Positions 12,303 through 54,790 are shown, counted from the stretch's first letter. The stretch is DNA of 64,000 nucleotides from Alphaproteobacteria bacterium (GCA_009777955.1 WRKW01000002.1:5294-69293); one strand, 5' to 3'. Notes: a model not told the origin generated them from the sequence alone. Numbers and translations: made by a program.

Positions 12303-12415
12303 ACGGCTCTCGTCAGAGAGCCGTCATGTTTTCCGTTTTTTGAATGAATAATGAATAGTGAATAATGAATAATTAATGCGTCGCGCAAAGCGCACGATAC
12401 AAATTTATATTGCAT
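12303..12415. repeat. Mosaic palindromic intergenic repeat (hairpin acggctctcgtcagagagccgt, then gaatgaataatgaataat and cgcgcaaagcgcacgataca modules)
   Basis: Related modules recur at 15174, 25047, 42164, 48043, 50694 and 54610. Confidence 0.8.
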
Positions 12416-12550
12416 AATCTGTACGGTTGATAGCTTATTGAACCGATGTTATGTTTACTCTTGACAAACAGTCTGTTTTGATAGTACTATTGCGTTAATT
12501 AATTCAAAGGGCGTGGAGAGAGGGTCTTTGATAAACAAAAGGCACAACTC

Positions 12551-13810
12551 ATGTTTAACAGAAACAAAGGCAGATTTGCCGATATGGGAAAAGTAAAAAG
12601 AACAACCGAAGAAATAATTGACGATGCCAATGCAAAGCATAATCGCATCGCCGCCCTGTGGAGTCGCAACAGACCATCAACCCCGGCGGTACCCGCATCC
12701 GCAAACAATCCCCATGTTGCAAAATCTGCATCGGAAAAAAAGCCGGCTGATAAACAGTCGTCCGAATCAAAAGGGTTCGTGCCATACGCGCTGAACAAAC
12801 AAAGTGTTGGTGGTATATTGTCGGCTTATTGGTTTCCGATTGCGTGTGTTGTTATCGTGCTTTTGCTTGTGGTGTGGGCTATGTGGCCAAGCAGTGATAC
12901 CACTTCGGAAGATGCCCTGCCATTGGCACCCGCTGTTGTAATGGTTGATGGAGAGGTTGTTCATGCCAATCCGGATGAAACAGATGTTAATGTTTCAGAA
13001 CCCACTGTCCATATAATTAACGAAAAGCAGTTGCCAGAATTTGACATAGTTCGAATCGAGAAAAATGGCTCTATAATAATCGCCGGTCGTTATCTGCCCC
13101 AGCAAAGCATATCCGTGATGATTAATAATAAGATTGTCGCCACGGAACGCACCGATGCCAATGGCGAATTTGTGCATGCGCCTACAAAGCCTTTAAATCC
13201 GGGCAACTATACAATAAAGCTGACCGCTGTTGATCATGATGTTGTGTCTGAAAACGATGTATTCCTTTATATAGCACAGGGAAATGATTACAGCAGATCG
13301 CTTTCATTGCTGATGACAAAGGATGGAAGTAAAGTATTACAGGCACCGATGTTGGCTGACGGTGACTTGGCAGTGTCCAAGATAGATTATCTTGAAAATG
13401 GCCGCATAGTCGTCCAGGGTCGGGCTATCCCGCGCCTGCGTGTGACTTTGACATTGGATGGAAATAAAATTGGCACTTCGCGCACAAGCGACCACAAAAA
13501 CTTCATGCTTGGTGCGGATACCGGAAACCTGACAGCGGGTACGGAATATACCCTGGTTGTGAATTTGCATGATGCCAGTGGTAACGCTGTGTCTGCGGTC
13601 ACGCACAAGTTCAAGATGCCGGAAATGACCCCGGGTGATGATACTTGGTACACTGTACGTCGTGGCGATTCGTTATGGATAATTTCACGGAACTTTATTG
13701 GGCGTGGCGTGCGCTATACCGTGATATTCGAAGCAAACAAGGATAAGGTTAAAAAGGCAGATTTGATTTATCCAAATCAGAAACTTCGGATCCCGGTAAC
13801 GGCAAATTAA
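12551..13810 (+). CDS. LysM peptidoglycan-binding domain protein with N-terminal membrane anchor and Ig-like repeats
   Basis: C-terminal LysM (YTVRRGDSLWIISR...LIYPNQKLRIP). One transmembrane segment near aa 95-115. Confidence 0.7.
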   Translation: MFNRNKGRFADMGKVKRTTEEIIDDANAKHNRIAALWSRNRPSTPAVPASANNPHVAKSASEKKPADKQSSESKGFVPYALNKQSVGGILSAYWFPIACVVIVLLLVVWAMWPSSDTTSEDALPLAPAVVMVDGEVVHANPDETDVNVSEPTVHIINEKQLPEFDIVRIEKNGSIIIAGRYLPQQSISVMINNKIVATERTDANGEFVHAPTKPLNPGNYTIKLTAVDHDVVSENDVFLYIAQGNDYSRSLSLLMTKDGSKVLQAPMLADGDLAVSKIDYLENGRIVVQGRAIPRLRVTLTLDGNKIGTSRTSDHKNFMLGADTGNLTAGTEYTLVVNLHDASGNAVSAVTHKFKMPEMTPGDDTWYTVRRGDSLWIISRNFIGRGVRYTVIFEANKDKVKKADLIYPNQKLRIPVTAN

Positions 13811-13887
13811 TCTAAATTGGGGCGCGGAACTACCGCGCCCCACCCTTATAATCCGAATCAATTATTTATAAGTTTGGGGAAAATAAA

Positions 13888-14424
13888 ATGAAAGCCAAAG
13901 ATTTTCGCACCTTTTGCTTGCGTTTGCTGAAATATGAAATGGGTATAACGCTGACAATGCGCCAGCGGGGTCGGAATGTTCCGATAGAAATAAACGGCGA
14001 AAACCAAGATACCCAAAACTGGGATAAGCTTTTGTTAAATGTGGAATGGGGTGAATTCAAAGAAAAAATTTTGCTAAGGCTTATAATGCACGGTGAATAT
14101 CCTATCTGCGGGATCAGTGGCAGACCGATAAAAGAAGAATGCCAGTTATCCAAAGATCATCAAGTTTGCAAAAGCAACGGGGGGTCTTATCGGCTTTCTA
14201 ATCTTCAGCCCGCAATGCATGAAGCAAACGGCAAACGTGGTAATAAAAAATTGGGCAATTCGTCGCCGTATTTAAATTGTAATACCAACGGAAAGATTAT
14301 AACAAATATCCGGCAGATTGAAGAGCGTAAGGATCACAAGCCAAAGTACAGAAATAAAAAGAAAATCCGTGTTTTTAATCTGGCAGATGAGATGATAAAT
14401 AGGGCAAGCAGAAAACAAAGATAA
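13888..14424 (+). CDS. HNH endonuclease family protein
   Basis: CGISGRPI...LSKDHQVCKSNGGSYRLSNLQ...HEANGKRGNK matches the HNH beta-beta-alpha metal finger (DH...N...N/H). Confidence 0.55.
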   Translation: MKAKDFRTFCLRLLKYEMGITLTMRQRGRNVPIEINGENQDTQNWDKLLLNVEWGEFKEKILLRLIMHGEYPICGISGRPIKEECQLSKDHQVCKSNGGSYRLSNLQPAMHEANGKRGNKKLGNSSPYLNCNTNGKIITNIRQIEERKDHKPKYRNKKKIRVFNLADEMINRASRKQR

Positions 14425-14548
14425 AAAAATAGGCTTTGTGGTAGAGAGTATTTTTTTGCATTTTGGCAAAAATATTTATTAAAAATAAACTTGACAAATC
14501 CATATACAGGTCTATCATGTTTGTATAATCTAACCAAAAGGCAAAAAA

Positions 14549-15100: not shown

Positions 15101-15173
15101 AATCGCATTAAAAAATTACCATCATACCTGCGACGGCAAATGATTCCGTTGATATGATTATCCCTTAAACGGC

Positions 15174-15195
15174 TCTCGTAAGAGAGCCGTTAATA
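15174..15195. repeat. Hairpin repeat acggctctcgtaagagagccgt (probable terminator of the upstream gene)
   Basis: Perfect 8-bp stem. Same family as the 12303 repeat. Confidence 0.7.
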
Positions 15196-15225
15196 ATGCG
15201 TTCACTTTACATGACTAAATACAAA

Positions 15226-15254
15226 TTGACCTTTGTCATGGCATATGGTATAAT
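15226..15254 (+). promoter_or_regulatory. Near-consensus sigma70 promoter (TTGACC, 17 nt spacer, TGgTATAAT)
   Basis: -35 at 15226-15231. Extended -10 at 15246-15254. AAAGGAG RBS follows, then the ATG at 15276. Confidence 0.6.
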
Positions 15255-15275
15255 ATACCCAAAGGAGAGAGTATC

Positions 15276-15785
15276 ATGAATACATTTAACAAAACTATAA
15301 AGATAACAAGTATCCTTGCTGTATTAACGATAATCCCATTGCATGGGTCTATTGCCGCTGTTGCGTGTATGGCAAGACCCATAAGTCCGACGAGTTGTCC
15401 AGAAAGTGGCGTAACCCAGTGTCCTGCTAGCGGTACCAGTGGTAATGCCACAAATCAAGATTGTACCAACCTATCCCTTGGCGATTGGAAATTAACGGGT
15501 TGTACCGGAAGTAATGTATCAGAGTTCAGTGGCACAAGCCTGTGTTCAAGCACAAGCGGAACATATCCTAATTTTGGCAACCCTGTTACAGATGGTGGCA
15601 GTAATTGTTGGTGTAAGATAACCAGTATTCCCGGGTTTAGTGTCGCTTCGTCAGCTTGGGTTTGCCGGGGCACCGTCGGCGGGGGTTTGTCCGGTTGTGC
15701 GGATTACTGCGCGTACCATTGCGCGGACTTCGTCCGGAACGTTTCCGTATTCCGGTCGGCGCTGTTTGCGGCTCTCGGCCTTTAA
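15276..15785 (+). CDS. Cys-rich secreted protein, paralog A (169 aa)
   Basis: Signal peptide. About 90% identical over the first 60 aa to the product of 24443..24994. Shared CWCKITSIPGFSV block. Confidence 0.6.
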   Translation: MNTFNKTIKITSILAVLTIIPLHGSIAAVACMARPISPTSCPESGVTQCPASGTSGNATNQDCTNLSLGDWKLTGCTGSNVSEFSGTSLCSSTSGTYPNFGNPVTDGGSNCWCKITSIPGFSVASSAWVCRGTVGGGLSGCADYCAYHCADFVRNVSVFRSALFAALGL

Positions 15786-16085
15786 TGTTATGGCGGTCTG
15801 ATGTCATTGTGGTCTGGTGTCATTGCGAGTCACAAAGTGGCGAAGCAATCTTTTCAGGTATTCCGTGTCATTGCGAGTCGCGCCGTCAGGCGGACGAAGC
15901 AATCTGTTCCAACGATGGAAGTATAAAAATTCCATTGTCTGGAAGGATTGCTTCGCGGTCTTCGACCACTCGCAATGACACGGAATGCTGGAAAAGATTG
16001 CTTCGCGGTCTTCGACCACTCGCAATGACACAAAATATCTGGAAAGATTGCTTCGTGGTCTTCGACCACTCGCAATGACACGAAA
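15786..16085. repeat. Cluster of five ~50-bp units (GTGTCATTGCGAGT, variable hairpin core, CGAAGCAATC), two forward and three inverted
   Basis: Direct reading of 15817-16080. The six-frame ORFs here (15804..16130 etc.) are repeat artefacts. Confidence 0.8.
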
Positions 16086-16187
16086 TGTTATATTGGAATA
16101 CAATATAAATCTTAAACATTGAAAATTCATACTAATATTGATATACTAAGCCTGTGAAACTTAACCATTAATCATGGAGCCTATGAT

Positions 16188-17305: not shown

Positions 17306-17866
17306 CTATTTCAATACTTTCCACAAATCTTCAAATGTTGCACCTGTGTCAGAAAAGCAAAAATGTCCTTTGTCCGTATAGTCGTGTCGTGTGATGTTTG
17401 GATATATCTGCATAATATGGTTAACGCTTTTTGTAATCATATCCATATCATCTTGCGAATGAAACAAATGGACGTGTTTGATTTTATTTAACGCTTCTTT
17501 ATTAAAATCGAATTGTAAGAAATCACCCTCTCGTCTATCTGGGTCGATCCATGGCGCAACCAGTACAAGCTTATCCAAAGATATCCCTGGATTCCCATGC
17601 AACCATTTCAAAAAAAATCCACAGCCTGCACTATGTCCAACAACAACCGACAGATTAGAATGGTCTAATTGTTCAAAAGTCTTTTTCCATTCTTCATAAA
17701 CGGGTTTGTAAGGCGCTGGCATTTCCAGACACTGACACAACAGGCCAGAACGCAAAAATTTTTGCTGCAACCACGGCAACCAATGCGCATTTGACGGAGA
17801 TGGGAAGTCCATCTCGAAATACTCCTCTCTATCACAAACACCGTGCAATATAACTGCTGTTTTCAT
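17306..17866 (-). CDS. Serine hydrolase, YdeN/RBBP9 alpha/beta-hydrolase family
   Basis: About 186 aa. GHSAGC nucleophile elbow. Late Asp/His (HSQDD...H). Confidence 0.6.
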   Translation of the reverse strand: MKTAVILHGVCDREEYFEMDFPSPSNAHWLPWLQQKFLRSGLLCQCLEMPAPYKPVYEEWKKTFEQLDHSNLSVVVGHSAGCGFFLKWLHGNPGISLDKLVLVAPWIDPDRREGDFLQFDFNKEALNKIKHVHLFHSQDDMDMITKSVNHIMQIYPNITRHDYTDKGHFCFSDTGATFEDLWKVLK

Positions 17867-17946: not shown

Positions 17947-18741
17947 TTAGTCGCTGATTATATCTTCAACCCAGTCTAAAATCTCTTTACTCGGATTGCT
18001 TATCACAAGTTCTTGCCATTGGCCTGTCTTTTGAAAATAATCGTCTTTCCAACCTGGCGAACACACACTTGAAAACTCTGCATTTTTGAAAGAAGTAGGC
18101 AAATCCCATTTAGACCTGCTCATTCCATTTTTAGTTAGAACGCGTTTGTCTGCGTATTTTAATGTTCCGTATTGTCTATCTTTCGGGATAAAAAGCCAGT
18201 TATTATCATCCTGGTCAAAAAGACTTCGTGCAATCTCTTTTTTTGAGTGCGGATGCCATGGACAAATTCGTGCAATATCAGCCGTTCCTTTTATTATTCC
18301 ACCAACTTCCATAAAGCCATAAATTATGTGCTTATCCGGACCAACGAATGCAAGCTTACCATTGTCTTGTAATTCCGTTTGTCTGAACCAACCAAAAAAC
18401 ACAAACAAGTCGCCAATACCAACATTGGATTTTTTAAGGTGTGACAAGGCAGCCCCTTGTTGTCCGAATGCAGGAATCCAATTCTCAGGACAACTATTTA
18501 TGCAATCATTTCTTATGTCCGGGTCAAGATGACAGAATCTAATATCAAAAGCAGGGTTCAGTTCTTTTATTATCTGTTCATAAGTTTTTCCATTATAGGA
18601 AATGTCCGAGAATCTTCGTTCGCTATTTTTATCAGGAATTGGCAATGATAAAAGCGTACCGTCCGACAATATAGGATTTGGCATACCGCCTGCACTTGAA
18701 TCAAAGCCCTTACGGCTTAGAATAATTTTCTGTTTTTTCAT
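17947..18741 (-). CDS. Hypothetical protein (264 aa)
   Basis: Long clean ORF. No recognised motif. Confidence 0.45.
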   Translation of the reverse strand: MKKQKIILSRKGFDSSAGGMPNPILSDGTLLSLPIPDKNSERRFSDISYNGKTYEQIIKELNPAFDIRFCHLDPDIRNDCINSCPENWIPAFGQQGAALSHLKKSNVGIGDLFVFFGWFRQTELQDNGKLAFVGPDKHIIYGFMEVGGIIKGTADIARICPWHPHSKKEIARSLFDQDDNNWLFIPKDRQYGTLKYADKRVLTKNGMSRSKWDLPTSFKNAEFSSVCSPGWKDDYFQKTGQWQELVISNPSKEILDWVEDIISD

Positions 18742-19185: not shown

Positions 19186-19289
19186 CCAGGCTTCGCTTTT
19201 CAAGCTACGCCGGACTAGTCTTCGCTAACTTCTCTCTACGGCCTGCCTTACTGGCGTAAGCCAGGCGTAGCTCGAAGAGCGAAGCCTGG
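19186..19289. repeat. Long inverted repeat (26-bp arms, 2 mismatches, ~52-bp loop) abutting the tRNA-Gly 3' end
   Basis: ccaggcttcgcttttcaagctacgcc pairs with ggcgtagctcgaagagcgaagcctgg. A single-arm copy occurs at 61896-61920 after tRNA-Ser. Confidence 0.7.
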
Positions 19290-19360: not shown

Positions 19361-19522
19361 GAAGTTTACGAATTATAACCAGATTTCATTTGACTTTCAA
19401 TAGATTTGTTATATACTTACCGTAAGTAAAAACGAATCCTTGGCCTGTGGGTCTGGGACACCGAACGGCAAGTGTTTGCTCTCGGTGGCTTTTTATTGGA
19501 AAAACAAAAAAGGATACAAAAC

Positions 19523-24424: not shown

Positions 24425-24442
24425 GCACTTCCCGCAATGACA

Positions 24443-24994
24443 TCAAAGGCCAAGACCCGCAAACAGCGCCGACCGGACAGCGGAAGAGTTCTGGGCGAAG
24501 AATGCGCAATTGAACGCGCAGTTATCCGCGCAAATGGACGGAGTGCTGTAGTCGTTCGCGAAAACCCAAGCCGACAAAGCGACACTAAACCCAGGAATGC
24601 TGGTTATCTTACACCAACAGTATTGTCCGTTATCTGCAACAGGGTTGCCAATGTTAAGGTAGCTTCCGCTTGTATTTGAACAAAGGCTTGTGCCACTGAA
24701 TTCCGATACATTACTCCCGGTACAATTTGTTGCTTTCCAATCGCCAAGGGATAGGTTGGTGCAATCACGATTTTGCGTGGCATTACCACCAGTGCCACCA
24801 CTAGCAGGACACTGGGACCAATCACCACTTGGACAACTCGTCGGACTTATAGGTCTTGCCATACACGCCACAGCGGCAATAGACTGATGCAATGGGATTA
24901 TCGTTAATACAGCAAGGATACTTGTTATCTTTATAGTTTTGTTAAATGTATTCATGATACTCTCTCCTTTGGGTATATTTATATTATACCACAT
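24443..24994 (-). CDS. Cys-rich secreted protein, paralog B (183 aa)
   Basis: Paralog of the 15276..15785 product (MNTFNKTIKITSILAVLTIIPLH...). Confidence 0.6.
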   Translation of the reverse strand: MWYNINIPKGESIMNTFNKTIKITSILAVLTIIPLHQSIAAVACMARPISPTSCPSGDWSQCPASGGTGGNATQNRDCTNLSLGDWKATNCTGSNVSEFSGTSLCSNTSGSYLNIGNPVADNGQYCWCKITSIPGFSVALSAWVFANDYSTPSICADNCAFNCAFFAQNSSAVRSALFAGLGL

Positions 24995-25011
24995 ACCATG
25001 ACAAAGGTCAA
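24983..25011 (-). promoter_or_regulatory. Near-consensus sigma70 promoter for paralog B (TTGACC, 17 nt spacer, TATAAT)
   Basis: Mirror copy of the promoter at 15226..15254. Confidence 0.55.
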
Positions 25012-25023
25012 TTTTTATTTAGT

Positions 25024-25200
25024 CATGTAAAGTAAACGCATTCTTAACGGCTCTTTTAAAAGAGCCGTCATGCCTTCCGCCTTCGCTATCGCTACGGTGC
25101 GACAAGGCGCAGACACCCATTGTTCAATAAGGCATCGTGCGCACAGCGCACGATACATACATTATTCATTATTCATTCAGCTGAAATCCACAACCCATAC
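25024..25200. repeat. Mosaic palindromic repeat, inverted copy (hairpin acggctcttttaaaagagccgt plus cgcacagcgcacgataca...attattcattattcattc)
   Basis: Same modules as the 12303 and 50694 repeats in reverse orientation. Confidence 0.75.
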
Positions 25201-30962: not shown

Positions 30963-33900
30963 CTATATAAAGCTTTCCAATTCCCAATCATGTAACCAAA
31001 GGATATAGCCATGTATTGTTCGGTTTGGAAAGGCCGTGCGCAGCAAAGCCTCGTATTCCGCCACTTGTGCTGTGTATTTGTCCCGGTGTATTGTCTTGTC
31101 TGTGTCAGTTTTAAAGTCGACAAATTCGATGATATCGGATGTGACGATCATGCGGTCAATTCGTCGGCTGATGAATTTTCCGTTAACAAAACCCGCAACG
31201 GGGACTTCTGCGCGGGAATTTTTTTCAAAGAATCTGGCTATTTCCGGGTGCGTGCGGATTTTTTCTATCAACTTTGCATCGCCGTTGGTGTCGTCGCCGT
31301 CGATTAAAATATGCGATAATTGTCTGTGTATTTTTTCGCCCGCCTCGATAGCATATTTTCTACTTTCGCGTGCGGTAATAATATCCGATAAAGATTTATT
31401 CGAAAAGTCCGGGTTTAAAGGGGATTTTGTGATAAAAAGTGTACTTGATGTATTTTTTTCTCGTTTCGGACGGTCGTAAAATGTTTTTGTGTCGCTGCGG
31501 GATGTTTCGGGGGGGGCATCTTGCCCCGGGGCTTTCGGAACTTCTTTTTCTTGTGTGCATGCGATACGTGTTATGCCGTTTTCATCCGTTATTGCATTTG
31601 GATGTTCTGGAATCACATGTGACAGTGTTGTATGCCAGGCATCAATCGGGGGTTCTTTGGTGTTATTGAATCCGTAAATATATAATCTGTCACGGGCGCG
31701 CGTCATCGCAACATAAAGCAGACGATAATATTCTTCCAGTTGGATTTCGTATTTTTCCTGTATGGCCTTTAGAAACCTTTCTGATGCGACCGCCCGCCCT
31801 TTCCACAAGAACGGGTTGCCGTATTCAATGGTGTTGGGTATGGGGATTGGTTCTGCAATTCTGACCGCATTCGCACTGCGCGGGGTGCGAATAGTGTCGA
31901 CAAGGAATATGATCGGTGCCTCCAGGCCTTTAGAGCTGTGTGTAGTGACAATCCGAACCCCGGCACTTGCATCTATATCACGAATGATTTCATTGGCACC
32001 GTCTGTGAACCACCGTATGAATTCTTTCAGACCGCCCGGTCTTGTGCGTTCGTATGACAGGCAAATGGTTAAAAATTCTTCCAATGGGTCGATTGCCTGT
32101 CGTCCCAGGGCGGATATAAGTTTTTCTCTTCGTTCTTCGGTATTCAAAAGCCACATGAAAAATGAATAAGGCGAAAGGCTTTTTTGCACTATGATTTGTT
32201 CTATTTGTTTGTAACATTCGTTATTTAACCCGTTGATATGGCTGAATAAGTCAGTATATTGCCTGTTTCGGCATAAATCGAACAATTCTGCTTCATTCAT
32301 TCTAAAAAATGGGGATTTTAATATACAGGCAAGCAAATAGTCATCGGTCGGATCAAGTGCGAACCGCGCTGTGTTTAACAGGTCGCGTATTGCCGGAAAG
32401 TCAGGTAATCTTATGCGATCGCTTCCGGCCACGGGTATGTTTCGGGATTGTAATTCTTCTATCAGGGGTGCTGCAAATGGTGCACGTCGCTGTACCAGAA
32501 TCATGATGTCGGATGGTAAAATGTTACGGTCGGCAGATTCTAATCGTTCGCCACAGAGCAGACTTTCAATTTTTCCGGCTATTTTGCATATAAAATCATG
32601 CCGTCCCATAGCGGTGTCTTGGTTTTCTGCGGGTTTTGATAATGGATGTAATTCGACTAAGCCCGCATCGCCATTGCGGAATATTTTATGATGATTATTT
32701 TCAAACTTTGATAATGAACTGATTGATATATCGTTAAAAAAATAATCCACGCTTGATAAAATTGGCGCGGTAGAGCGAAAGGATTGTGACAGTGGCACTT
32801 CGGAAATTCGTCGTTGATCGTTTTTTATTTGTGTGTCTATGGTGTCTTTTGATGCCGAAAATGATCTTGGATTTGCGCCCTGGAATGAAAAAATCGACTG
32901 TTTTGCGTCCCCAACAACAAAAAGAGACCTTGGGTTTTCGGTTTTGTCCCCGTCGGTGAAAAAATTTGTGGTCATAGAGCACATAATTTCCCATTGCTCG
33001 GGGGATGTGTCTTGGGCTTCGTCTATTAATATATGTTTCAGGTTGTTATCCAGTTGTGATAGTATCCATCCCATTTTGGCGGGGTCGGAAAATAGTTTGT
33101 TAACGTGCAGAATTAAATCGTCAAAGTCAAGTGTTGCCCGCAAGTGTTTAATCGAACTGTATTTTTTTACAAACGCATCGGTAAGGTCAAACAATGCGAC
33201 AGAGTTTTCGAAAATTTCCCTGTTCGTATTTTCTTGATCTAATGCGTGCACAAGCTCTTGTTCTTCGGCCAGGTAATCTTTTTTTGCGACATTGGATATT
33301 TTTGTTCCTGTTGCGGTTAAAAACGCGCATTTGTATTCTTCAAAGTTTTCACCAGTGAATTTTTTCACAGCTTCCGAGATTTTTAATAAATATCCGGCGG
33401 GTTTGGCCTCTGTTGCAACCATGTCTGGGATTGAATTGCGATTCGTGGCGGCGGCGGGGCTGTGGAATTTGGTTTTGGCCGATTCGTTTATTTTTAAAAA
33501 TTGTTTAATATTATCAATATATTGTTCGCGATAATTAAAATTATTTCTAATCTTAAAAAAGTGTCTATATTGCCCGGTTATTATATTCAAAAGGTCATCT
33601 AATGAATATTCTGATACCTGATCCAGGATGCGGGAAAAGGCATCTTTTACCAATGGCGATTGATCGGTGCCACCCACCAATTCTTGAAATACGTCTTTCA
33701 GCAATCGCTTTTGATCCGCCCCGGATACAAGATGCCAGGCGGGTGCAATGCCGGCTTCCATGGGAAATCGGCGTAAAATTTCTTCGCAAAATCCATGAAT
33801 TGTCCGAATTTTCAACATTCCTGGATTGTCTATATATTCATAAAAGATTGTTCGCGCCCGTACCAGATCGCTTTCTGTTGGTACTGAACCATGATTTATC

Positions 33901-34172
33901 CCATGCAAAAGGTCGCGCAGTTCTTTGTCTTCCGCCATTGCCAATTTGCGCAATTCGGCCAGAACCCGGTTCCGCATTTCCCCCGCGCCGGCATTTGTAT
34001 ATGTCAGACATAGAATGCCATCCCGTGTATCGGTGCTTTTTAACAAAATTCGCAACAGACGCTGTACCAAAACACTTGTTTTTCCGGTTCCGGCATTGGC
34101 CTGAACCCAGACGTTTTGCGTGGGGTCACTGGCTTTGGCTTGTTCTTTTGAAAATTCTCGTTTTGATGACAT
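30963..34172 (-). CDS. addA: Double-strand break repair helicase-nuclease AddA (UvrD-like helicase plus C-terminal RecB-family nuclease)
   Basis: N-terminal Walker A ANAGTGKTSVL. Helicase motifs through aa 750. C-terminal nuclease motif IDRMIVTSDIIEFVDFKTD. Confidence 0.85.
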   Translation of the reverse strand: MSSKREFSKEQAKASDPTQNVWVQANAGTGKTSVLVQRLLRILLKSTDTRDGILCLTYTNAGAGEMRNRVLAELRKLAMAEDKELRDLLHGINHGSVPTESDLVRARTIFYEYIDNPGMLKIRTIHGFCEEILRRFPMEAGIAPAWHLVSGADQKRLLKDVFQELVGGTDQSPLVKDAFSRILDQVSEYSLDDLLNIITGQYRHFFKIRNNFNYREQYIDNIKQFLKINESAKTKFHSPAAATNRNSIPDMVATEAKPAGYLLKISEAVKKFTGENFEEYKCAFLTATGTKISNVAKKDYLAEEQELVHALDQENTNREIFENSVALFDLTDAFVKKYSSIKHLRATLDFDDLILHVNKLFSDPAKMGWILSQLDNNLKHILIDEAQDTSPEQWEIMCSMTTNFFTDGDKTENPRSLFVVGDAKQSIFSFQGANPRSFSASKDTIDTQIKNDQRRISEVPLSQSFRSTAPILSSVDYFFNDISISSLSKFENNHHKIFRNGDAGLVELHPLSKPAENQDTAMGRHDFICKIAGKIESLLCGERLESADRNILPSDIMILVQRRAPFAAPLIEELQSRNIPVAGSDRIRLPDFPAIRDLLNTARFALDPTDDYLLACILKSPFFRMNEAELFDLCRNRQYTDLFSHINGLNNECYKQIEQIIVQKSLSPYSFFMWLLNTEERREKLISALGRQAIDPLEEFLTICLSYERTRPGGLKEFIRWFTDGANEIIRDIDASAGVRIVTTHSSKGLEAPIIFLVDTIRTPRSANAVRIAEPIPIPNTIEYGNPFLWKGRAVASERFLKAIQEKYEIQLEEYYRLLYVAMTRARDRLYIYGFNNTKEPPIDAWHTTLSHVIPEHPNAITDENGITRIACTQEKEVPKAPGQDAPPETSRSDTKTFYDRPKREKNTSSTLFITKSPLNPDFSNKSLSDIITARESRKYAIEAGEKIHRQLSHILIDGDDTNGDAKLIEKIRTHPEIARFFEKNSRAEVPVAGFVNGKFISRRIDRMIVTSDIIEFVDFKTDTDKTIHRDKYTAQVAEYEALLRTAFPNRTIHGYILWLHDWELESFI

Positions 34173-35631: not shown

Positions 35632-35758
35632 CGTGGGCGAATAATAAAAACGTGTACAGGATTTCAACGGCAACGAAATCGTTGCCTTAACTTTATCCTA
35701 GACTTTTATGTTCCTTTTTTGCTAGATTTGACTTTGATAAAGGAAATCGGAGAAAAGC

Positions 35759-42122: not shown

Positions 42123-42163
42123 GGGGCAATGCACAGGATGTCGCGGCCAGAATTATAACCAAA

Positions 42164-42232
42164 ACGGCTCTCGTAAGAGAGCCGTCATGCTTGCCGTTGC
42201 ATGTATGACGGCAACTGCGTTGCCGTGCCCGC
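42164..42232. repeat. Hairpin repeat acggctctcgtaagagagccgt plus a second palindrome gacggcaactgcgttgccgt
   Basis: Lies between the convergent dcd and bamD genes. Confidence 0.7.
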
Positions 42233-42951: not shown

Positions 42952-43102
42952 GTTGGAAAGTATAATACGCTGGGTTATAAAATAAAAGCGGAAAATTTAA
43001 TTGTTATCGTCATGCCTGCGGCGGCAGACATCCATTGCACGATACAAATATGTATTCGCGGGCAAAGCCCGCGAATAGTAATACCGGGCTTGTAATACAA
43101 AA

Positions 43103-43303
43103 TTACTTTAAGAACTCGATACAGTCTTTTTCAGAACGATTTTCGTTTGTCCAATCGGATTCCTGGTATCCAAGCAAGGCGTTGCCGTTCTTGGTTACTT
43201 TATACACACATTCTTTATTACCGGATTTTATGGTGCGATCTGTGGAATAAGAATAGCAACCTGTTAAAATGACGGCAATGGCGGCGAACAACATATATTT
43301 CAT
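43103..43303 (-). CDS. Small lipoprotein (66 aa)
   Basis: Lipobox LTGC. Confidence 0.45.
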   Translation of the reverse strand: MKYMLFAAIAVILTGCYSYSTDRTIKSGNKECVYKVTKNGNALLGYQESDWTNENRSEKDCIEFLK

Positions 43304-45836: not shown

Positions 45837-46039
45837 TAAAAACGTGGCGAAAAAGCCACGTTTTTTCTTATTTATCTTATTCGAATTGGTGTGATAATCT
45901 TGCGGTAAAACCACCTGCATGTGCGGGTCGATAAATTAATAATCGATGATAAATAGAAATTCTACCGACTAATGACTATCGACTACCGACTATCAACTTG
46001 AACCTTGATTTCCCGTTTCCCTGTGCTATCCTGTTATTT

Positions 46040-48042: not shown

Positions 48043-48064
48043 GACGGCTCTTTTAAAAAAGCCG
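48043..48064. repeat. Hairpin repeat acggctcttttaaaaaagccgt (probable bidirectional terminator between queA and galE)
   Basis: Same family as the other acggctct...agagccgt hairpins. Confidence 0.7.
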
Positions 48065-48065
48065 T

Positions 48066-49165: not shown

Positions 49166-49418
49166 ACGGATTCTATTATACATAAGCAATGCCGTATTTC
49201 AAGCGATTTTACCTGTATGGACTATTTAAAAAGCTATTCGCGGGCTTTGCCCGCGAATGGTTTATATAAACATTGGATTCCCACCTGCGCAGGAATGACG
49301 GCAACGAAGTTGCCGTTAAGAATATGTCCGCGAAACTGTTGCTCCCCTTCTCTTGACATATTCTTTTATATGAAATATAGTTGCCATATACAGAGAGAAA
49401 ACATAAAAGGAAGACACA

Positions 49419-50612
49419 ATGTCAAAATTTACCAAAGCTGATGTAAACAATTTTGATTTTGATACCCCCATTGCAGATGGCAAGACAAAAAAAATATGGC
49501 AGACGGTTCATCCCGGAATAGTTGCTTTCGAACAAAAACCGGATCTGGTCATGGCCAACGGCACAAGCGTAATGACGGCAGAACCGGAAAAAGCCGCTAT
49601 TTTGGTAAATTATTTGAATATCCAGAATAACAATATATTCAACTATTTGAACTCGTTGGGTTTTGCCACTACGTACCAGGGATTCAAAGACGGATTTTTG
49701 TTTCATAAAGAATGCGCGCCATTGAAAATAGAATTCGTGGTACGCTTTGCCGCATGTGACAATGCCAGCCTGTTAAAGCGAGAGCCGGAAAAATACGCGC
49801 TTTGGGATGAAAGCAGTAATTCTTATAACACCGATAAAGCAAACCGTAAATACTTTAACGAAGACGGAACGATTATTACATTTGCAAGTCCGATTTTGGA
49901 AAGTTTTCATAAATATCCATTGGTAATTACCGAAAACGGCATCGACATGATTCCCGAATCAAAGGCAAAGGAACATCCGCGTTATTTCAGAAACGGCAAA
50001 ATGACAGAGTTCATGAATGAAGATCCGATACTTATAACCCCACCGGATAATAAAGTTGTATGGCATGTGCATAACCAAAAAAAGCCGGTTGTTCCCGGAA
50101 AACCGCTGGCGATTATAGATCGTCGTGCCAAAGAATTATATGATGCAGGTAACGGAAATATCAAATTTGTACGCCGTTTGGATCAGACCGAATGCATATC
50201 TTACAGTGACGAACTGGGGCTGCAGCGACAAACATTGGAAATTGCCCAGGCGATTGATTATGCATGCCGCAATACTATGTTCAAAAAGACCGAATTTGAC
50301 GGGAATGGAAATATTGTATTTTTGGGCGAAGAAAAACCGTTCAATGTAATTGATATAAAGTTGGAGTATGGAATAACTGCGGACGGTTATGCCCTTACCG
50401 ATGATATTGTTACCAGTAATGCACGTTTTGCATGGGGCGGACTGCCAACTATGTCTTTCAAAAAAATGTTCAAAGGTGCGTATGTACCCCCCGTATTCCA
50501 GAATGCCAATGATCTTCCGGAACATCTTTTGACCGCTGCGATGTTTACAGCCGGTACGGAACACTTTTCAAAGGCAAGACAGGGCTATCTGTCCAAAAAT
50601 ATCGGCAGATAA
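49419..50612 (+). CDS. Hypothetical 397-aa protein with distant SAICAR-synthetase (PurC-family)-like N-terminal region
   Basis: ADGKTKKIWQT...VAFEQKPD and IEFVVRFAACDNASLLKR resemble PurC motifs (GKTK..Y; E.VVRN.AAGS..KR). Roughly 160 aa longer than bacterial PurC. Confidence 0.4.
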   Translation: MSKFTKADVNNFDFDTPIADGKTKKIWQTVHPGIVAFEQKPDLVMANGTSVMTAEPEKAAILVNYLNIQNNNIFNYLNSLGFATTYQGFKDGFLFHKECAPLKIEFVVRFAACDNASLLKREPEKYALWDESSNSYNTDKANRKYFNEDGTIITFASPILESFHKYPLVITENGIDMIPESKAKEHPRYFRNGKMTEFMNEDPILITPPDNKVVWHVHNQKKPVVPGKPLAIIDRRAKELYDAGNGNIKFVRRLDQTECISYSDELGLQRQTLEIAQAIDYACRNTMFKKTEFDGNGNIVFLGEEKPFNVIDIKLEYGITADGYALTDDIVTSNARFAWGGLPTMSFKKMFKGAYVPPVFQNANDLPEHLLTAAMFTAGTEHFSKARQGYLSKNIGR

Positions 50613-50693
50613 ATATAACCTATTTTTAACGGCAACTTTGTTGCCATTATTCCTGTACATGTAGTATTTCGTGGACGGAATTATAACCTGAAC

Positions 50694-50830
50694 GGCTCTT
50701 TTAAAAGAGCCGTCATGCTTTCCGTTTTTTGAATGAATAATGAATAATTAATGCGTCGCGCAAAGCGCGACACCGCCCCCAACATTGTCACTCCGGCGCA
50801 TGTGGATTAAAGTTTGAAGCGAGTCATTTG
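50694..50830. repeat. Mosaic palindromic repeat (hairpin plus gaatgaataatgaataat, cgcgcaaagcgcgac, and caacattgtcactccggcgca modules)
   Basis: Shares modules with the 12303 and 54610 repeats. Confidence 0.8.
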
Positions 50831-50881
50831 ATTTTTACAAAAGTGACAAACAGAAATAAAGATACTTAAATCGAATATTGT

Positions 50882-53800
50882 TTAATACCCCCATTTCCAC
50901 ATAGTGGGCATGTCGTCGTAATCGCTTAAATTATACGAATTTGAATAACAGTATGCGACATCGTAAAGGCCTGCGTTTGGCCATGCCTGATATATTGGTA
51001 TGGAAACACCATCCTTGTCCCTTGTGGTGGCCGATGATCCCGTAAGATGGAAACAATTTTCGAACGTTCCCAAGTATCTGTCTACTCTATAGTCATCCCA
51101 TATCTGATATACCCCGCCGAACATCCAATTTTTGACATTAGAACAATAAACATCATCTTCGGCTAACCGCCATTCACAATAATTATTTGTTTCGCAGAAA
51201 TTGCATTGGTAACCGTCAAATAGATTATTTAAGAAAACGGTTGGAATGTGATATGCGCCGGATCCATATTGATTATAACAATAATGTATACTACCATAAG
51301 TAAGATTTTCTTCTTCCACGGTAATGTAACCATACTGTACGTTAGCTTCAGTCGGTATTCTGACATCGCAATTGTAATAATAACCCGCGTGTTCTGTAAG
51401 GGTACTGGGATCAAGAATTGTAAAACCGTAGTATTCGCCAGCCTTATCATTTCCATAACAACTATAGTATCCGTATGTTATAGTAACGTCGTTGGTATAA
51501 TAAGCATTCCAATATTTACCATTATTATCCGTGCCATAGCACTGATAAAGACCATATTCCCATACGGCACTGTGGGTTGGAATATATATATATTCACCAT
51601 TTTCATTCGTATCCTGGCAAATCTTAATCTCATAATCCTGATAAACTTCGGTAGTGGTGAAATTTATGGGGGATCCGTTATTGTTATAGTATGTACAAAC
51701 CTTACGTTCCCAATCGTAGTCCCAATCTGTTGTGTAAAAAGAAGTCCAGATGCCTTGTTCATTGTAATGTTCACAAGCTTTTCGATTTTCATCATAATAA
51801 ACATTGGTGGTGTCGAAGGTGATGGAATTACCAAATTCGTCGCGAACATTGGTATCACATGTCATCAAGTTTTCGTTATAATATACATCATTGGTAACAA
51901 AATCGGTTCCATGATTATAGTCATGACATCTGTACGCCTGAAAAACTTCGTCTTCTGTAAAATATCTGCCTCCCCACGAACCATTATCATAGTATCCAGA
52001 GCAATAATATGGCGGATTACTATATGAATAGTAAGAGCAGCTCCAATTATTAACAATATCAAAATAGGATGGATAGCATGGATGATTGCCATCAATACTT
52101 AACCAATCTGAAACTTTCCAGCAATTATAATCACCATCGGTACTAAAATAAAAACTCCACGGTTGGTAGCAAGGAATATTACCATTGGTGCTGAATGTAC
52201 CTTCTGGATGATCTTCGCAATAATGGTTGCCATTTACGCTTAGATATTCATGGTAACCAAGATCATAGCACATATATCCATTAAAAACAAAGCCGTTATT
52301 CATAAAATCACTATAACAGTCAAGTCCATTGTTGGTTTTAATAATATTATTGTAGTTGTAATTACAAGGGATATAAGCACCATTTTCAAGAGCGTATAAA
52401 TAGCCAGAAGAGCTCCAAGCCGTATGACATACATTATGATCTGAATCAAAGAAGCCTTCGTTATTGTAATAACAGTAATCATATTCTCGATATGGATTTA
52501 CATAACGTTCATTGTGTTTTGAACAATTACTTCCGCCGTCATAACTGCTACAGGTATGAACTGAAGTCCAATTCTGAATTCCATCGAATAAACCGGCACC
52601 TATGCTTGTGATATTGGTATTCGCGAAAGTCGAAGCAAACATGCCCTCTGCCGGTGGCCCTATGATATTGGAAAATAGATTACCGGGTACTTTGCCGGTA
52701 ATATTTCTTGCGCCAGAAAATGTGCCAAGGAACATATATGATGCCGGTGACCCGAAAAGCGTACCGAATATATTGTGCGGGATTGTTCCGGTAAGTCCGC
52801 TGCAACCAACAAATGTGCCATAGTACATGGAACTTGCTGGCATACCATTTACCCCAGAAAATAACGGCGGTAATGCATACGGTTGCGAGTTCTCGCTGGT
52901 AAGGCCGCGGCAGTTTCTGAAAGTTTCATAGAACATACTATCTGCCGGTGCGCCATTAATTCCGGCAAACAGGTTTGCAGGAATTGAACCGGTCAATCCT
53001 TGACAATTCCAGAATGTCTGGCTGAACATACTGCTAGCAGCCGATCCTGTAAAAGTTCCGAACAATCCCGGTGGGATTGAACCGGTCAGGCCAGTGGCAT
53101 GGTAAAATGTAGAGCTGAACATACTATTCGCTGGCACACCATTGATTCCGGCGAATAATGCGCCGCCTATACCGGTAAAGCCGGTGTAAGCGAATGTACC
53201 ACTAAACATACTAGACGCTGGCGCACCTTTTATTCCTTTGAACAGATCTTTTGGAATAATTCCCGTTAATCCATAAACATTCCAAAATGTACTACTGAAC
53301 ACGCTGTCTGCTGGTGGTCCATCAAGTCCCGCAAATAAATCTTCTGGAATTTCGCCAGAAAGTCGGGCTTGAGAAAACGTGCCACTGAACATACCAGACG
53401 CTGGCGCGCCGGTAATACTTGCGAACAGGCGGTTTGGAAGTGTTGGGGGGGGAAAATTCCATCCATAATTTTGTCCTAAATTACCAAATGTGTACGCAAA
53501 CATACTGCTTTTTCCCGTACCTATGACACTTTCAAACAATGTTCCCGGAATTTTTCTTAAAGCATTGCAGTAGAAAGTTTGATAAAAACTTGGTATCTCG
53601 GCATTGGTGGTGCCAAGTATTGGGAACAGGCGACCCAAATCTCCACATATATCTCTCATTCTTGTATCCGTATTACAATTATTTTGCCACCATCCGACGT
53701 AATTATGATTTCTTGCGAAACTGATTGCTGGTGTCGAGCTTGATAAATTATATGCCGTTGCCCCCCCACCGATACCGACGGTGTAATTGCCCGGTACCCT

Positions 53801-54496
53801 ATATGTTCTTGAATACATTCTTTCTTCTGTGTCGGTTTTTTTTATCACGGTTATTCCGTTCCACTCTTCGCCTTCTGCTTCGCGATCGCCCCAATCTATG
53901 CAAAATTCCCCTTTGGCTGAAATGGTAAAGTGGAAAAATCCGCCGGATGGTACATCTTCAAGTTTTACAAAAAATTTGGGCTTACATTCGACCAATTTTT
54001 CGATGCCTTCAATTACCGTGGCACCGTTTGTGGCGGTTTCGGTTGAAAGGACGTGGTCGCAGAAATTGCTTCTGTTCGCTGGACCGCCAATATGTTCGTT
54101 TATCCGGTCGATTGTGCATAAAAGAAACTTCATGTTCGATACGGCTTTCCATACTACGTCATTGCCCGCTTCCAATGATACGGGAAAGGCACAATCACCA
54201 TCCAGACACATTGTTTTGGTTGATCCTACCTTGTGCTTTATGTAATCTTTCACAAGCTGGTTATTCGCAATTTGACAGCTTTGGGTCGCGGAATGCAGAT
54301 CTGGTTTCTCATAGATATCGCCGGGCATTACAACGGATGGAATATCTGGAACATTGTTAAGACAATCCGGGGATACGAACCCGATATCTTTTACCACTTC
54401 GCATGTGTCCCAGTCAACGATATATTTCGCCCATGCATGCGGCGCAAACAGTATGAATGACAGGCAAACAGCAAAGAAAAAGGAATACTTTTTCAC
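50882..54496 (-). CDS. Giant secreted tandem-repeat protein (1204 aa)
   Basis: Signal peptide. About 10 copies of a ~33-aa repeat (G.PA.SMFS.TF..C.GLTG.IP..LF.GI.G). Then a Tyr/Asn/Asp/Cys-rich region with ~26-aa repeats (YYDEN...C..YN..G....FTTT.VY). Confidence 0.7.
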   Translation of the reverse strand: MKKYSFFFAVCLSFILFAPHAWAKYIVDWDTCEVVKDIGFVSPDCLNNVPDIPSVVMPGDIYEKPDLHSATQSCQIANNQLVKDYIKHKVGSTKTMCLDGDCAFPVSLEAGNDVVWKAVSNMKFLLCTIDRINEHIGGPANRSNFCDHVLSTETATNGATVIEGIEKLVECKPKFFVKLEDVPSGGFFHFTISAKGEFCIDWGDREAEGEEWNGITVIKKTDTEERMYSRTYRVPGNYTVGIGGGATAYNLSSSTPAISFARNHNYVGWWQNNCNTDTRMRDICGDLGRLFPILGTTNAEIPSFYQTFYCNALRKIPGTLFESVIGTGKSSMFAYTFGNLGQNYGWNFPPPTLPNRLFASITGAPASGMFSGTFSQARLSGEIPEDLFAGLDGPPADSVFSSTFWNVYGLTGIIPKDLFKGIKGAPASSMFSGTFAYTGFTGIGGALFAGINGVPANSMFSSTFYHATGLTGSIPPGLFGTFTGSAASSMFSQTFWNCQGLTGSIPANLFAGINGAPADSMFYETFRNCRGLTSENSQPYALPPLFSGVNGMPASSMYYGTFVGCSGLTGTIPHNIFGTLFGSPASYMFLGTFSGARNITGKVPGNLFSNIIGPPAEGMFASTFANTNITSIGAGLFDGIQNWTSVHTCSSYDGGSNCSKHNERYVNPYREYDYCYYNNEGFFDSDHNVCHTAWSSSGYLYALENGAYIPCNYNYNNIIKTNNGLDCYSDFMNNGFVFNGYMCYDLGYHEYLSVNGNHYCEDHPEGTFSTNGNIPCYQPWSFYFSTDGDYNCWKVSDWLSIDGNHPCYPSYFDIVNNWSCSYYSYSNPPYYCSGYYDNGSWGGRYFTEDEVFQAYRCHDYNHGTDFVTNDVYYNENLMTCDTNVRDEFGNSITFDTTNVYYDENRKACEHYNEQGIWTSFYTTDWDYDWERKVCTYYNNNGSPINFTTTEVYQDYEIKICQDTNENGEYIYIPTHSAVWEYGLYQCYGTDNNGKYWNAYYTNDVTITYGYYSCYGNDKAGEYYGFTILDPSTLTEHAGYYYNCDVRIPTEANVQYGYITVEEENLTYGSIHYCYNQYGSGAYHIPTVFLNNLFDGYQCNFCETNNYCEWRLAEDDVYCSNVKNWMFGGVYQIWDDYRVDRYLGTFENCFHLTGSSATTRDKDGVSIPIYQAWPNAGLYDVAYCYSNSYNLSDYDDMPTMWKWGY

Positions 54497-54559
54497 GAAC
54501 TTTTCTCTCTTGTTTTGATAAACGTAGCAAAATGGAAAATTTATATCAACAGGAAAATT

Positions 54560-54790
54560 TACGGCCGGTCATTTAGCCGGTAGTCGATAGCCGATAGTCG
54601 GTAGTCGGTAGAATTTTCCGTTTTTTGAATGAATAGTGAATAATGAATAATGTATGTATCGTGCGCTTTGCGAGACATCACCCCCAACATTGTCACTCCG
54701 GCGCAGGCCGGAGTGGGACTTAAAACCGCAACGCAAAGCGTTGCCAACCAGCCCAGGTCGCGTTTTGCGCGATTAGATGTACTTCCCCGG
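54560..54790. repeat. Composite repeat: (ccgact)-type block ggtagtcgatagccgatagtcggtagtcggtag plus mosaic modules (gaatgaatagtgaataatgaataat; caacattgtcactccggcgca; gcaacgcaaagcgttgcc)
   Basis: The ccgact-type block is an inverted copy of 45962-46000. The other modules match the 50694 repeat. Confidence 0.75.

Follow-up and report, generated by a model that had tools for sequence, protein, structure and literature searches.

Mosaic arrays of CGTC-tagged repetitive extragenic palindromes and lineage-specific hairpins in an uncultured small-genome alphaproteobacterium

A 64-kb stretch of the metagenome-assembled genome (MAG) of an uncultured Alphaproteobacteria bacterium with a small genome (GCA_009777955.1 WRKW01000002.1:5294-69293; this whole stretch is hereafter 'the window') carries in its intergenic regions a set of short palindromic modules that recur in different combinations. 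We interpret these sites as mosaic arrays of repetitive extragenic palindromes (REPs), akin to the bacterial interspersed mosaic elements (BIMEs) and the mosaic elements found between genes in Neisseria (NIMEs), and give this reading a probability of roughly 60%. One component of the arrays is the known CGTC/TGTC-tagged REP superfamily, whose members are interleaved with lineage-specific GC-rich hairpins (H1, H2, H3/H3b and F) and AT-rich linkers. The mosaic is likely to have arisen by duplication along with a family of genes for Cys-rich secreted proteins, numbering 24 or more, and by recombination at the palindrome feet that was either illegitimate or relied on short homologies, rather than by insertion of bounded transposons; its role would mostly be the protection of mRNA 3' ends and the insulation of neighboring genes. 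The arrays are not a new kind of element. What is specific here is the fusion of H1 and H2 to the CGTC tag, the use of 7-bp microsatellites as linkers and the tie to a lineage-restricted family of secreted proteins.

Composition of the arrays

The window has a GC content of ~44%. The locus tags of the genome (prefix FWG80) run in steps of 5 to ~05050 and therefore suggest a complement of ~1,000 genes; BamD, the SPOR protein RlpA and an RpoD of the proteobacterial type are encoded in the sampled DNA. Further contigs of the same genome were reached via exact-protein look-ups (L006, which extends the window to the left, L008 and L010-L015), giving a total of ~164 kb of non-redundant sequence, biased towards the paralogous Cys-rich genes, out of a genome of roughly 1 Mb. 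A related organism is represented by a single JGI metagenome contig, Ga0099364_10005186, in two pieces (L004 and L005) of 17.7 kb together. The databases lack a close relative, since the next-best match of the window QueA among 5.8 billion proteins is only 68% identical.

The H1 module is the palindrome ACGGCTCT-N6-AGAGCCGT. It occurs six times in the window, with exact copies at 12303, 15169, 25047, 42164 and 50692 and a copy with one mismatch at 48044, whose reverse orientation is inferred from its flanks; the loops are CGTCAG (one copy), CGTAAG (two) and TTTAAA (three). An original prediction from the window sequence had listed H1 together with five other modules, which have two to four copies each in the window. 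All of these are real, dinucleotide-preserving shuffles giving an expectation of ~0 matches for every module, and a self-comparison of the window bears out their shuffling in both order and orientation. The positions given there were right to within a few bases, two of the H1 copies lying at 15169 rather than 15174 and at 50692 rather than 50694.

A second palindrome, H2 (ACGGCAAC-N3-GTTGCCGT), had been overlooked. It is found at 42208, 49298, 50629 and 60031, and the hairpin at 35667 resembles it more loosely. To judge from their sequences, H1 and H2 clearly belong to one family: they have the flanks TTAACGGC...GCCGTCAT(G/T)CC in common, and their stems differ by compensatory changes, TCT/AGA in H1 against AAC/GTT in H2 and a ninth pair of C-G against T-A, nearly all of the remaining variation lying within the loop. 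These changes were taken directly from the sequences, as a MAFFT alignment had set the H2 stem out of register. The two segments that flank H1, A (GGACGGAA) and B (TTCCGTTT or TTCCGCC), show partial complementarity. In A-H1-B, the arrangement of seven to eight of the 13 H1 copies known from the window, the other contigs and the relative, this produces an imperfect palindrome ~65 nt long. All of the arrays have folds much more stable than those of shuffled controls, with z values from -3 to -5.6.

The 'CATGC...' that follows H1 is the head of a CGTC-tagged REP. By definition, these REPs have an unpaired CGTC (or TGTC or CCTC) tag and an 8-9-bp stem with A-T pairs in its first two positions; their loop measures 4-5 nt, and CCA is the commonest tail. 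The superfamily is found mainly in Alphaproteobacteria, takes in dRS3 of Neisseria and the Rickettsia palindromic elements (RPEs) RPE-4 and RPE-6 of R. conorii, and has no known dedicated transposase (Di Nocera, De Gregorio & Rocco 2013, PMC3733652). A structural scan recovered the full architecture at 43008-43034, 49300-49274 (-) and 48046-48019 (-) in the window and at L004 1864 and L008 15490. Taking the components singly, the tag is CGTC at 43008, 49300 (-), 48046 (-), 42183, L004 1864 and L008 15490, and TGTC at 54691, at L014 9500 and in every unit of the GTCATTGCGAG repeat described below. The stem and loop conform to the definition in ATGCCTGC-GGCG-GCAGACAT, ATTCCTGC-GCAG-GTGGGAAT and ATGCCTGC-ATAAG-GCAGGAAT, and depart from it in H1, H2, H3, F and the long-loop variants. 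The tail is CCA at 43032-43034, 49276-49274 (-) and L004 1888-1890, AAC at 48021-48019 and GGG at 54715-54717. One unit, 49277-49296, fits the Y/R-relaxed dRS3 consensus, being one base off ATTCCCN8GGGAAT.

Two of the lineage-specific hairpins, H1 and H2, are fused to the tag of these REPs. Their 3' arm (GCCGT) overlaps the CGTC tag and supplies its CGT to the adjacent REP; in four of the six B-type copies the CGT of the tag thus doubles as the end of the H1 or H2 stem. A three-hairpin composite, in which H1 or H2 is followed by a CGTC REP with a CCA tail, a spacer and F, occurs three times: at 49316-49236 (-), at L004 1845-1928 and, minus the H hairpin, at 43008-43077. Several of the other modules likewise resolve into REPs or parts of them. 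Module E (CAACATTGTCACTCCGGCGCA; copies at 50780 and 54685) is a TGTC-tagged REP, complete at 54691-54717 and truncated at 50776-50800, and module A (GGACGGAATTATAACC) makes up the right arm of a REP-like hairpin with a long loop, located after H2. Repeat units of the form GTCATTGCGAG...CGAAGCAATC, missed by the original prediction at 15800-16087, have a TGTC tag and larger, variable loops and come in inverted pairs; in view of this tag and of a stem that opens with AT, they are probably a large-loop member of the CGTC REP superfamily. Their core motif presumably occurs across many phyla. In the sampled genome these units, with a variable small hairpin between GTCATTGCGAG and CGAAGCAATC, are abundant as inverted pairs or tandem 50-nt units and lie nearly always just 3' of a Cys-rich paralog.

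The remaining modules include a T-run with GAATAAT heptamers (12325, 50714 and 54614; reversed at 25155-25185), AATGCGTCGCGCAAAGCGC (12375 and 50750), GCACGATACAAAT (12392 and 43037) and the F hairpin TTCGCGGGC(A/T)TTGCCCGCGAA (43055 and 49237). Palindromes of TAGTCGG heptamers (the 'S' module), also missed earlier, are present at 45953 and 54572. The linkers are AT-rich and include two 7-bp microsatellites, GAATAAT and TAGTCGG, with two to seven heptamers per array.

Other assignments of the palindromes were considered and set aside. TATAAT, which appears in the reverse complement of module A, is without a usable -35 or TG extension and aims into antisense genes, and H1 was rejected as a promoter. 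H1 as a Xer/dif-like core site of 11+6+11 was likewise rejected: the loops of H2 are only 3 nt and the ninth pair, which lengthens the stem, covaries, both of which speak for a hairpin and against a duplex core whose crossover region spans 6-8 bp. Integron attC sites do not apply, there being neither R'/R'' (GTTRRRY) cores nor cassette arrays. No consistent match to CtrA, DnaA, IHF or CcrM sites was found in the modules. At the gathering and E-value thresholds of Rfam no module matched and only tRNAs reached threshold, the best sub-threshold match on a module region being FtrB (35 bits against a cut-off of 66). A literature search with the sequence words GTCATTGCGAG and ACGGCTCT/AGAGCCGT returned unrelated primer matches only.

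Distribution in the genome and the question of mobility

Since the modules also turn up elsewhere in the genome, on seven or more further contigs, and on the contig of the related organism, the family is not confined to the window, and the earlier proposal of a dispersed repeat family of shuffled modules is upheld. The ~164-kb sample contains nine H1 copies, nine arrays of GAATAAT heptamers and six TAGTCGG (S) palindromes or arrays, with about 20 module-bearing intergenic sites altogether. Beyond the window, H1 is found at L014 9655, L010 761 and L015 4061, and the related contig holds four H1 copies in its 17.7 kb plus most of the other modules in different arrangements.

Such a distribution raises the possibility that the modules are non-autonomous transposons of the kind of MITEs (transposable elements of the miniature inverted-repeat type), resembling Correia elements or RPE-1, with A and B as imperfect terminal inverted repeats (TIRs) around H1 and a transposase encoded elsewhere. 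The scatter of copies over many contigs, the 90-100% identity of some of them across 35-67 nt, the partial complementarity of A and B and the overlap of an A-like segment with the final codons of galE are all consistent with this. However, in an alignment of 20 H1 and H2 copies the homology stops at differing points, with at least five flank types on each side; no copy shows consistent boundaries or a target-site duplication, and no direct repeats were seen at the module edges. TIRs bounding a unit were not found, the partial A/B complementarity being the sole resemblance to them, and the modules recombine freely instead of traveling as one unit. Neither a transposase nor a REP-associated tyrosine transposase (RAYT) is present among the gene calls of ~120 kb; in particular, there is no PF01797-type (RAYT, Y1) gene in the gene calls of L001, L006, L008 and L011-L015 or among the scanned open reading frames (ORFs) of the window. 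The GTAG tag is on no module. A 26-nt pattern comprising H1 and CATG, ACGGCTCT-N6-AGAGCCGTCATG, with 20 fixed bases, was also scanned across whole collections: viral contigs gave zero matches, 185,579 species genomes gave one match at chance level, in a Cellvibrio MAG, and JGI metagenomes gave the one related contig only. As these scans yielded almost no matches, the genome is poorly represented in the collections. We therefore regard transposition of a bounded MITE as unlikely. The original prediction had likened the family to RPEs and Correia elements; the first half of this holds only in so far as some modules are CGTC REPs and thus of the same superfamily as RPE-4, RPE-6 and dRS3, whereas the Correia/MITE half falls for want, in the sampled DNA, of a TIR-bounded unit, target-site duplications and a transposase.

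Several observations weigh against the interpretation of the sites as REP arrays. H1 and H2 themselves fall outside the definition of a REP, with the CGT of the tag paired in the stem and no CCA tail. H1 is sparser outside the window (three copies in ~100 kb) than inside it (six in 64 kb). Extrapolation gives ~50-70 copies per module type, from a sample biased to paralogs, against the more than 100 per genome usual for REPs. Finally, no strain or close species with an empty site was found: the relatives of QueA are at most 68% identical, too distant for such a comparison, and this organism's own ENA and JGI assemblies match the window at 100% identity.

Association with a family of Cys-rich secreted proteins

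Two of the H1 copies, at 15169 and 25047, stem from a gene duplication, a feature that the original prediction did not notice. They form the outer ends of an inverted duplication of ~630 bp (15169-15796 and 24432-25068; 81-97% identity), each copy of which encodes a Cys-rich protein of 169 aa that has a signal peptide (15276-15785 + and 24955-24443 -), the gene being preceded by a TTGACC-17-TATAAT promoter and a Shine-Dalgarno sequence. In the independent ENA assembly, contigs stop at these inverted copies, near 15.3 kb and 24.9 kb. The 8.6 kb between them holds housekeeping genes (tRNA-Gly, rimM, trmD, a gene for a DUF2155 protein and tsaD), and could, given the inverted repeats, be inverted by homologous recombination.

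The encoded proteins belong to a family whose members, at least 24 in number, are spread over 11 or more contigs of this MAG, and for which we found no homologs outside this MAG and its relative and no Pfam domain match. They are ~165 aa long. Their signal peptide (MNTFNKTIKITSILAVLTIIPLH) and ten cysteines are invariant and their C-terminus (RSALFAGLGL) is conserved; other patches are hypervariable. A region with a strong promoter and the 5' untranslated region ('P') is near-identical upstream of 12 paralog copies. The stretch upstream of the promoter box contains H1, H2 with heptamers, TAGTCGG palindromes or TGTC units, while downstream of the genes there are inverted pairs of TGTC units, to which some copies add E, A, H1 and B in succession. 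On the related contig, a complete rRNA operon (16S, two tRNAs, 23S and 5S) occupies L004 7467-13422 (-), and an array B-heptamers-H3-E-H1 with a Cys-rich paralog is located directly 3' of its 5S gene.

The junctions of modules and cassettes point to recombination at the palindromes. Hybrids make up five of the 13 H1 copies; in these, cassette sequence takes the place of a flank exactly at the foot of the palindrome (Table 1). Rearrangement is directly visible at two places: at L004 7280-7300 module E is joined to H1 via a shared CGGC, and at L012 4432-4540 the final ~40 nt of a paralog coding sequence have become fused to a heptamer/H3b unit.

These associations admit a reading in which the modules have no life of their own and are the conserved flanks or decayed remnants of the Cys-rich cassette, with solo copies marking places from which a cassette was lost. 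The fusion of H1, H2, heptamers or S arrays to the P box, the succession of TGTC units, E, A, H1 and B downstream of paralogs, the clear deletion remnant at L012 4432-4540 and the derivation of two of the six window H1 copies from cassette duplication are all in keeping with it. We nevertheless find it doubtful: eight of the ten multi-module sites in the window (including 12303, 42135, 43008, 48019, 49236, 50629 and 54572) have no paralog, P box or TGTC units nearby, and the same is true of the solo H1 at L015 4061. Moreover, the modules beside cassettes vary widely, some cassettes are bare (L011 10001, L008 and L012), and CGTC REPs are known from many genomes without this gene family (PMC3733652).

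A more active role would make H1 and H2 the sites at which a recombination system crosses over or integrates. This system, which might involve a hairpin-recognizing or site-specific recombinase of the sort proposed for dRS3 in NIMEs, would insert, invert and exchange the promoter-bearing Cys-rich cassettes. A hint in this direction is that all four junction types predicted for insertion at A-H1-B in either orientation are seen, namely A-H1-P, Q-H1-B, rcB-H1-P and Q-H1-rcA; we hold this to be improbable all the same. On the interpretation as REP arrays, the hybrids would instead reflect co-duplication of modules with cassettes and illegitimate recombination at the palindrome feet.

Position relative to genes

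A gene map of the window distinguishes 11 convergent, 11 divergent and 39 same-direction intergenic regions. Modules occupy 12 of them: four of the 11 convergent, five of the 39 same-direction and three of the 11 divergent regions, amounting to some enrichment between convergent genes. REPs in general prefer convergent and same-direction intergenic regions (PMC3733652). The original prediction had placed nearly all copies at gene 3' ends, which is an overstatement in view of the three sites in 5' regions between divergent genes (25047-25185, 49236-49316 and 54572-54776).

It had further described T-runs after the hairpins and held the copies to be very likely intrinsic terminators. In its stronger form, this would make the modules primarily transcription terminators, with H1, H2, H3 and F as copied Rho-independent 'terminator repeats' like the pneumococcal SPRITE family. 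Several copies do have the requisite features. Seven of the 13 H1 copies follow a stop codon at a distance of ~80 nt or less; the solo H1 at L015 4061, 30 nt past the gapR stop, has a 10-bp stem followed by GUUUCUGUCUUU; the H2 at L013 7071-7110 combines a stem of 18 bp with an A-run and a T-run; and a lenient scan for a hairpin plus T-run is passed by H1 12303 (both strands), H1 42164 (- strand), F (- strand) and H3 (- strand). However, the other four of the six window H1 copies (15169, 25047, 48044 and 50692) fail that scan, because the tail on one side of the stem is CATGC..., and TTTTCCGTTTTTT follows only two of the six, starting 4-5 nt past the stem. H1 25047, the composite at 49236-49316 and the array at 54572-54776 lie between divergent genes, canonical terminators of unrelated sequence are used elsewhere in the window (45838-45865, 7947, 16533 and 41225), and termination alone leaves the conserved flanks and heptamer arrays unexplained. 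We hold a primary function in termination to be improbable. By analogy with REP biology, we posit instead that the arrays, once transcribed, form very stable stem-loops that would mainly protect upstream mRNA 3' ends and insulate neighboring genes, and that a minority of copies with U-rich tails may terminate transcription.

Comparison with known repeat systems

The closest match is the CGTC REP superfamily itself. The copies at 43008, 49300 (-) and L004 1864 have its tag, 8-bp AT-opening stem, 4-5-nt loop and CCA tail, 54691 is the TGTC form, the host is an alphaproteobacterium and no transposase is evident here. The differences are that in most cases the tag merges with the 3' arm of H1 or H2, outside the published definition, that several copies have hugely enlarged loops (25065-25133 and 50645-50691) and that the copy number is apparently below that of REP-rich genomes.

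In architecture, the arrays resemble the NIMEs, arrays in which dRS3 inverted repeats (ATTCCCN8GGGAAT) flank RS repeat segments; they lie beside surface-protein genes, are dynamic and, according to one proposal, are targeted by recombinases (Bentley et al. 2007, PMC1797815). Here too, GC-rich short inverted repeats alternate with AT-richer segments of multiple families in variable composition, arrays adjoin variable secreted- or surface-protein genes and differ in composition between paralogs, and one unit (49277-49296) nearly fits dRS3. Yet the present arrays are short (70-200 bp; two to six modules), whereas NIME arrays are often long runs of dRS3; H1 and H2 dominate in place of dRS3, of which the window has only the one such unit; no dRS3-targeting phage or recombinase was identified here; and the host is a small-genome alphaproteobacterium. 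Judged by sequence, the arrays are not NIMEs, the likeness being architectural.

The BIMEs of Escherichia coli are similarly extragenic mosaics of palindromes in alternating orientation with conserved linkers. Their REPs, however, have GTAG tags and a RAYT, neither of which is seen here, and their linker families are unrelated. RPEs are ~150 bp in length and characteristically inserted in frame within genes. In the present arrays the 3' end of one coding sequence, that of galE, is shared with an A-H1 copy, but no intragenic copy was found other than in these terminal codons, and RPE sequences are unrelated to H1. Correia elements (CREE) are discrete, about 100-155 bp, with long inverted repeats at their ends and target duplications. 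Like them and other bacterial MITEs, the modules are small, non-coding, dispersed and hairpin-forming in transcripts; unlike them, they have no fixed boundaries, unit-bounding TIRs or target duplications. The SPRITE elements share the recurrence of a terminator-like hairpin at gene 3' ends, whereas most H1 copies are without a U-tract and some lie in 5' regions between divergent genes. As regards the RPEs, the relationship lies in RPE-4 and RPE-6 being CGTC REPs (PMC3733652) and in the reduced genome of an alphaproteobacterial host.

Coordinates of the sites and neighboring features

Table 1. Module-bearing sites of the window, and hybrid H1 copies, Cys-rich paralogs and related units on other contigs
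Position (strand)	Composition	Context
12303-12404 (+)	H1 12303-12324 (loop CGTCAG); CGTC head and T-run 12321-12345; four GAATAAT/GAATAGT heptamers 12346-12373; bulged H3/H3b chimera hairpin and GCACGATACAAAT 12378-12404	76 nt past stop of 11943-12227 (+); upstream of LysM gene 12551 (+)
15140-15190 (+)	A'-type flank (ATGATTCCGTTGATATGATTATCCCTTAA); H1 15169-15190 (loop CGTAAG); hybrid A'-H1-P	Abuts conserved promoter region of Cys-rich gene 15276-15785; outer end of inverted duplication
15191-15275 (+)	P: AATGCGTTCACTTTACATGAC, TTGACC-17-TATAAT, AAAGGAGAG (Shine-Dalgarno)	Upstream region of paralog cassette
15800-16087	Five TGTC-tagged units GTCATTGCGAG-[variable hairpin]-CGAAGCAATC; two forward, three reversed as 50-nt tandem repeat	Just 3' of paralog gene; like units after most paralogs on other contigs
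24956-25185 (-)	GAATAAT heptamers 25185-25155; H3b ATCGTGCGC-ACA-GCGCACGAT 25154-25134; long CGTC-headed hairpin 25133-25065; H1 25068-25047 (loop TTTAAA; hybrid rcB-H1-P); P/promoter 25046-24956 of paralog gene 24955-24443	Between divergent genes, paralog (-) and xseA (+, from ~25243)
35667-35688	H2-like hairpin ACGGCAACG-AAAT-CGTTGCCTT	Between same-direction genes
42135-42226 (+)	A flank 42135-42163; H1 42164-42185 (loop CGTAAG); short CGTC-headed hairpin 42183-42206; H2 ACGGCAAC-TGC-GTTGCCGT 42208-42226; fold z = -5.5	Between convergent dcd (+) and bamD (-); H2 end 6 nt from bamD stop
43008-43077 (+)	CGTC-1-type REP CGTC-ATGCCTGC-GGCG-GCAGACAT-CCA 43008-43034; linker GCACGATACAAAT; F hairpin TATTCGCGGGC-AAA-GCCCGCGAATA 43053-43077	26 nt downstream of 66-aa gene 43103-43303 (-); upstream of bamD
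45953-45993 (-)	Half of a TAGTCGG-heptamer palindrome (S); full S palindromes at L008 9846-9912 and L011 3830-3897	
48019-48100 (-)	A-like segment 48100-48066 (last 11 codons of galE); H1 48065-48044 (one mismatch); CGTC REP CGTC-ATGCCTGC-ATAAG-GCAGGAAT 48046-48019	Between convergent queA (+) and galE (-); H1 touches galE stop codon
49236-49316 (-)	H2 49316-49298; CGTC-1 REP CGTC-ATTCCTGC-GCAG-GTGGGAAT-CCA 49300-49274 (dRS3-like); spacer; F 49258-49236	Between divergent tRNA-Thr (-) and 49419 (+)
50629-50800 (+)	Longest array: imperfect H2 50629-50647; REP-like hairpin with module A right arm 50645-50691; H1 50692-50713; CGTC head and T-run 50710-50734; two heptamers 50735-50748; H3 GCGTCGCGC-AAA-GCGCGAC 50753-50771; truncated E 50776-50800	Between convergent 49419-50612 (+) and 50882-54496 (-)
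54572-54776 (+)	No H1: S half-palindrome 54572-54612; T-run 54614-54630; three heptamers 54631-54651; H3b/H3 chimera 54655-54675; complete E, TGTC-ACTCCGGC-GCAG-GCCGGAGT, 54691-54717; GC hairpins 54728-54744 and 54757-54776	Between divergent genes (5' region, not 3' end)
60031-60049	Solo H2 variant ATGGCAAC-TTC-GTTGCCGT	Between convergent genes
L005 597	Hybrid Q-H1-B	
L004 6534	Hybrid Q-H1-rcA	
L004 7280	Hybrid E^H1-P	
L008 10001; L010 32; L011 3986, 10001; L012 100; L013 88, 7217; L014 10001; L015 6123, 9909	Cys-rich paralogs outside the window	
L010 549-673; L011 4495-4819, 10516-10628; L012 4560-4702; L013 590-714; L014 5677-5881, 9727-9902, 10538-10712; L015 230-350, 5818-6105	GTCATTGCGAG/CGAAGCAATC units	

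Some further features of the sampled DNA are recorded here. A palindromic repeat of another type (CCAGGCTTCGC...GCGAAGCCTGG, and GCCCGCCGTAGCTTTAGCGAAGGCTGGGC) is found at 19186-19216, 19259-19289 and 61895-61925, adjoining tRNA-Gly and tRNA-Ser; the segment 3' of tRNA-Ser (61853-61909) is 88% identical to L004 11531-11587, beside the tRNAs of the rRNA operon of the relative. The predicted tRNA-Gly promoter at 19372-19400 (-), TTGAAA-17-TATAAT, has a -10 region, GGTTATAATTC, that equals the reversed core of module A (GAATTATAACC); this match may be a coincidence or may hint at the origin of module A. Just 3' of the 54572-54776 array, 55439-55789 (+) encodes a stand-alone four-helix-bundle protein (Pfam 23S_rRNA_IVP, with a weak match to bAvd), with no reverse transcriptase or template repeat nearby.

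Hallmarks of mobile DNA are present on other contigs: a 1,254-aa polymorphic-toxin-like protein with MuF_C and ART-PolyVal domains (L014 1794-5558, -), and a VirD4/TraG-type coupling protein and a phage-type integrase (L014 12804-15068, -, and L013 2768-3769, +). None of these genes adjoins an H1 or H2 site in the sampled DNA. The window also has two very large ORFs, 50882-54496 (-; 1,204 aa, with no Pfam match on record) and 30963-34172 (-; 1,069 aa), and a gene for a protein with nucleotide modification associated domain 3 (Nmad3; 17947-18741, -; E = 2e-54), which adjoins that of a serine hydrolase (17306-17866, -) in a stretch of low GC content (~36%) at 16-18 kb. At its right edge, an 89-nt direct repeat unrelated to the modules (62956-63044 and 63596-63684; 96% identity, 640 bp apart) flanks a minus-strand ORF (63060-63512), with its second copy overlapping the 3' end of ORF 63626-63982.

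Implications

Repeated palindromes at the ends of bacterial genes are common, and in this respect the arrays are ordinary. About one in six intergenic regions of this lineage carries them, which matters to annotators, and they break short-read assemblies. Beyond this, our analysis extends the CGTC REP superfamily and arrays in the style of NIMEs and BIMEs to an uncultured small-genome alphaproteobacterium, and links these arrays to a family of secreted, Cys-rich and partly hypervariable proteins that is specific to the lineage and has at least 24 members. If the palindromes promote recombination of the Cys-rich genes, they would offer a second, independent test case for the old and still unproven hypothesis advanced for the NIMEs. 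Should H1 and H2 indeed be crossover sites, this would amount to a NIME-like diversification device outside Neisseria, the only genus from which, to our knowledge, such a device has so far been reported.

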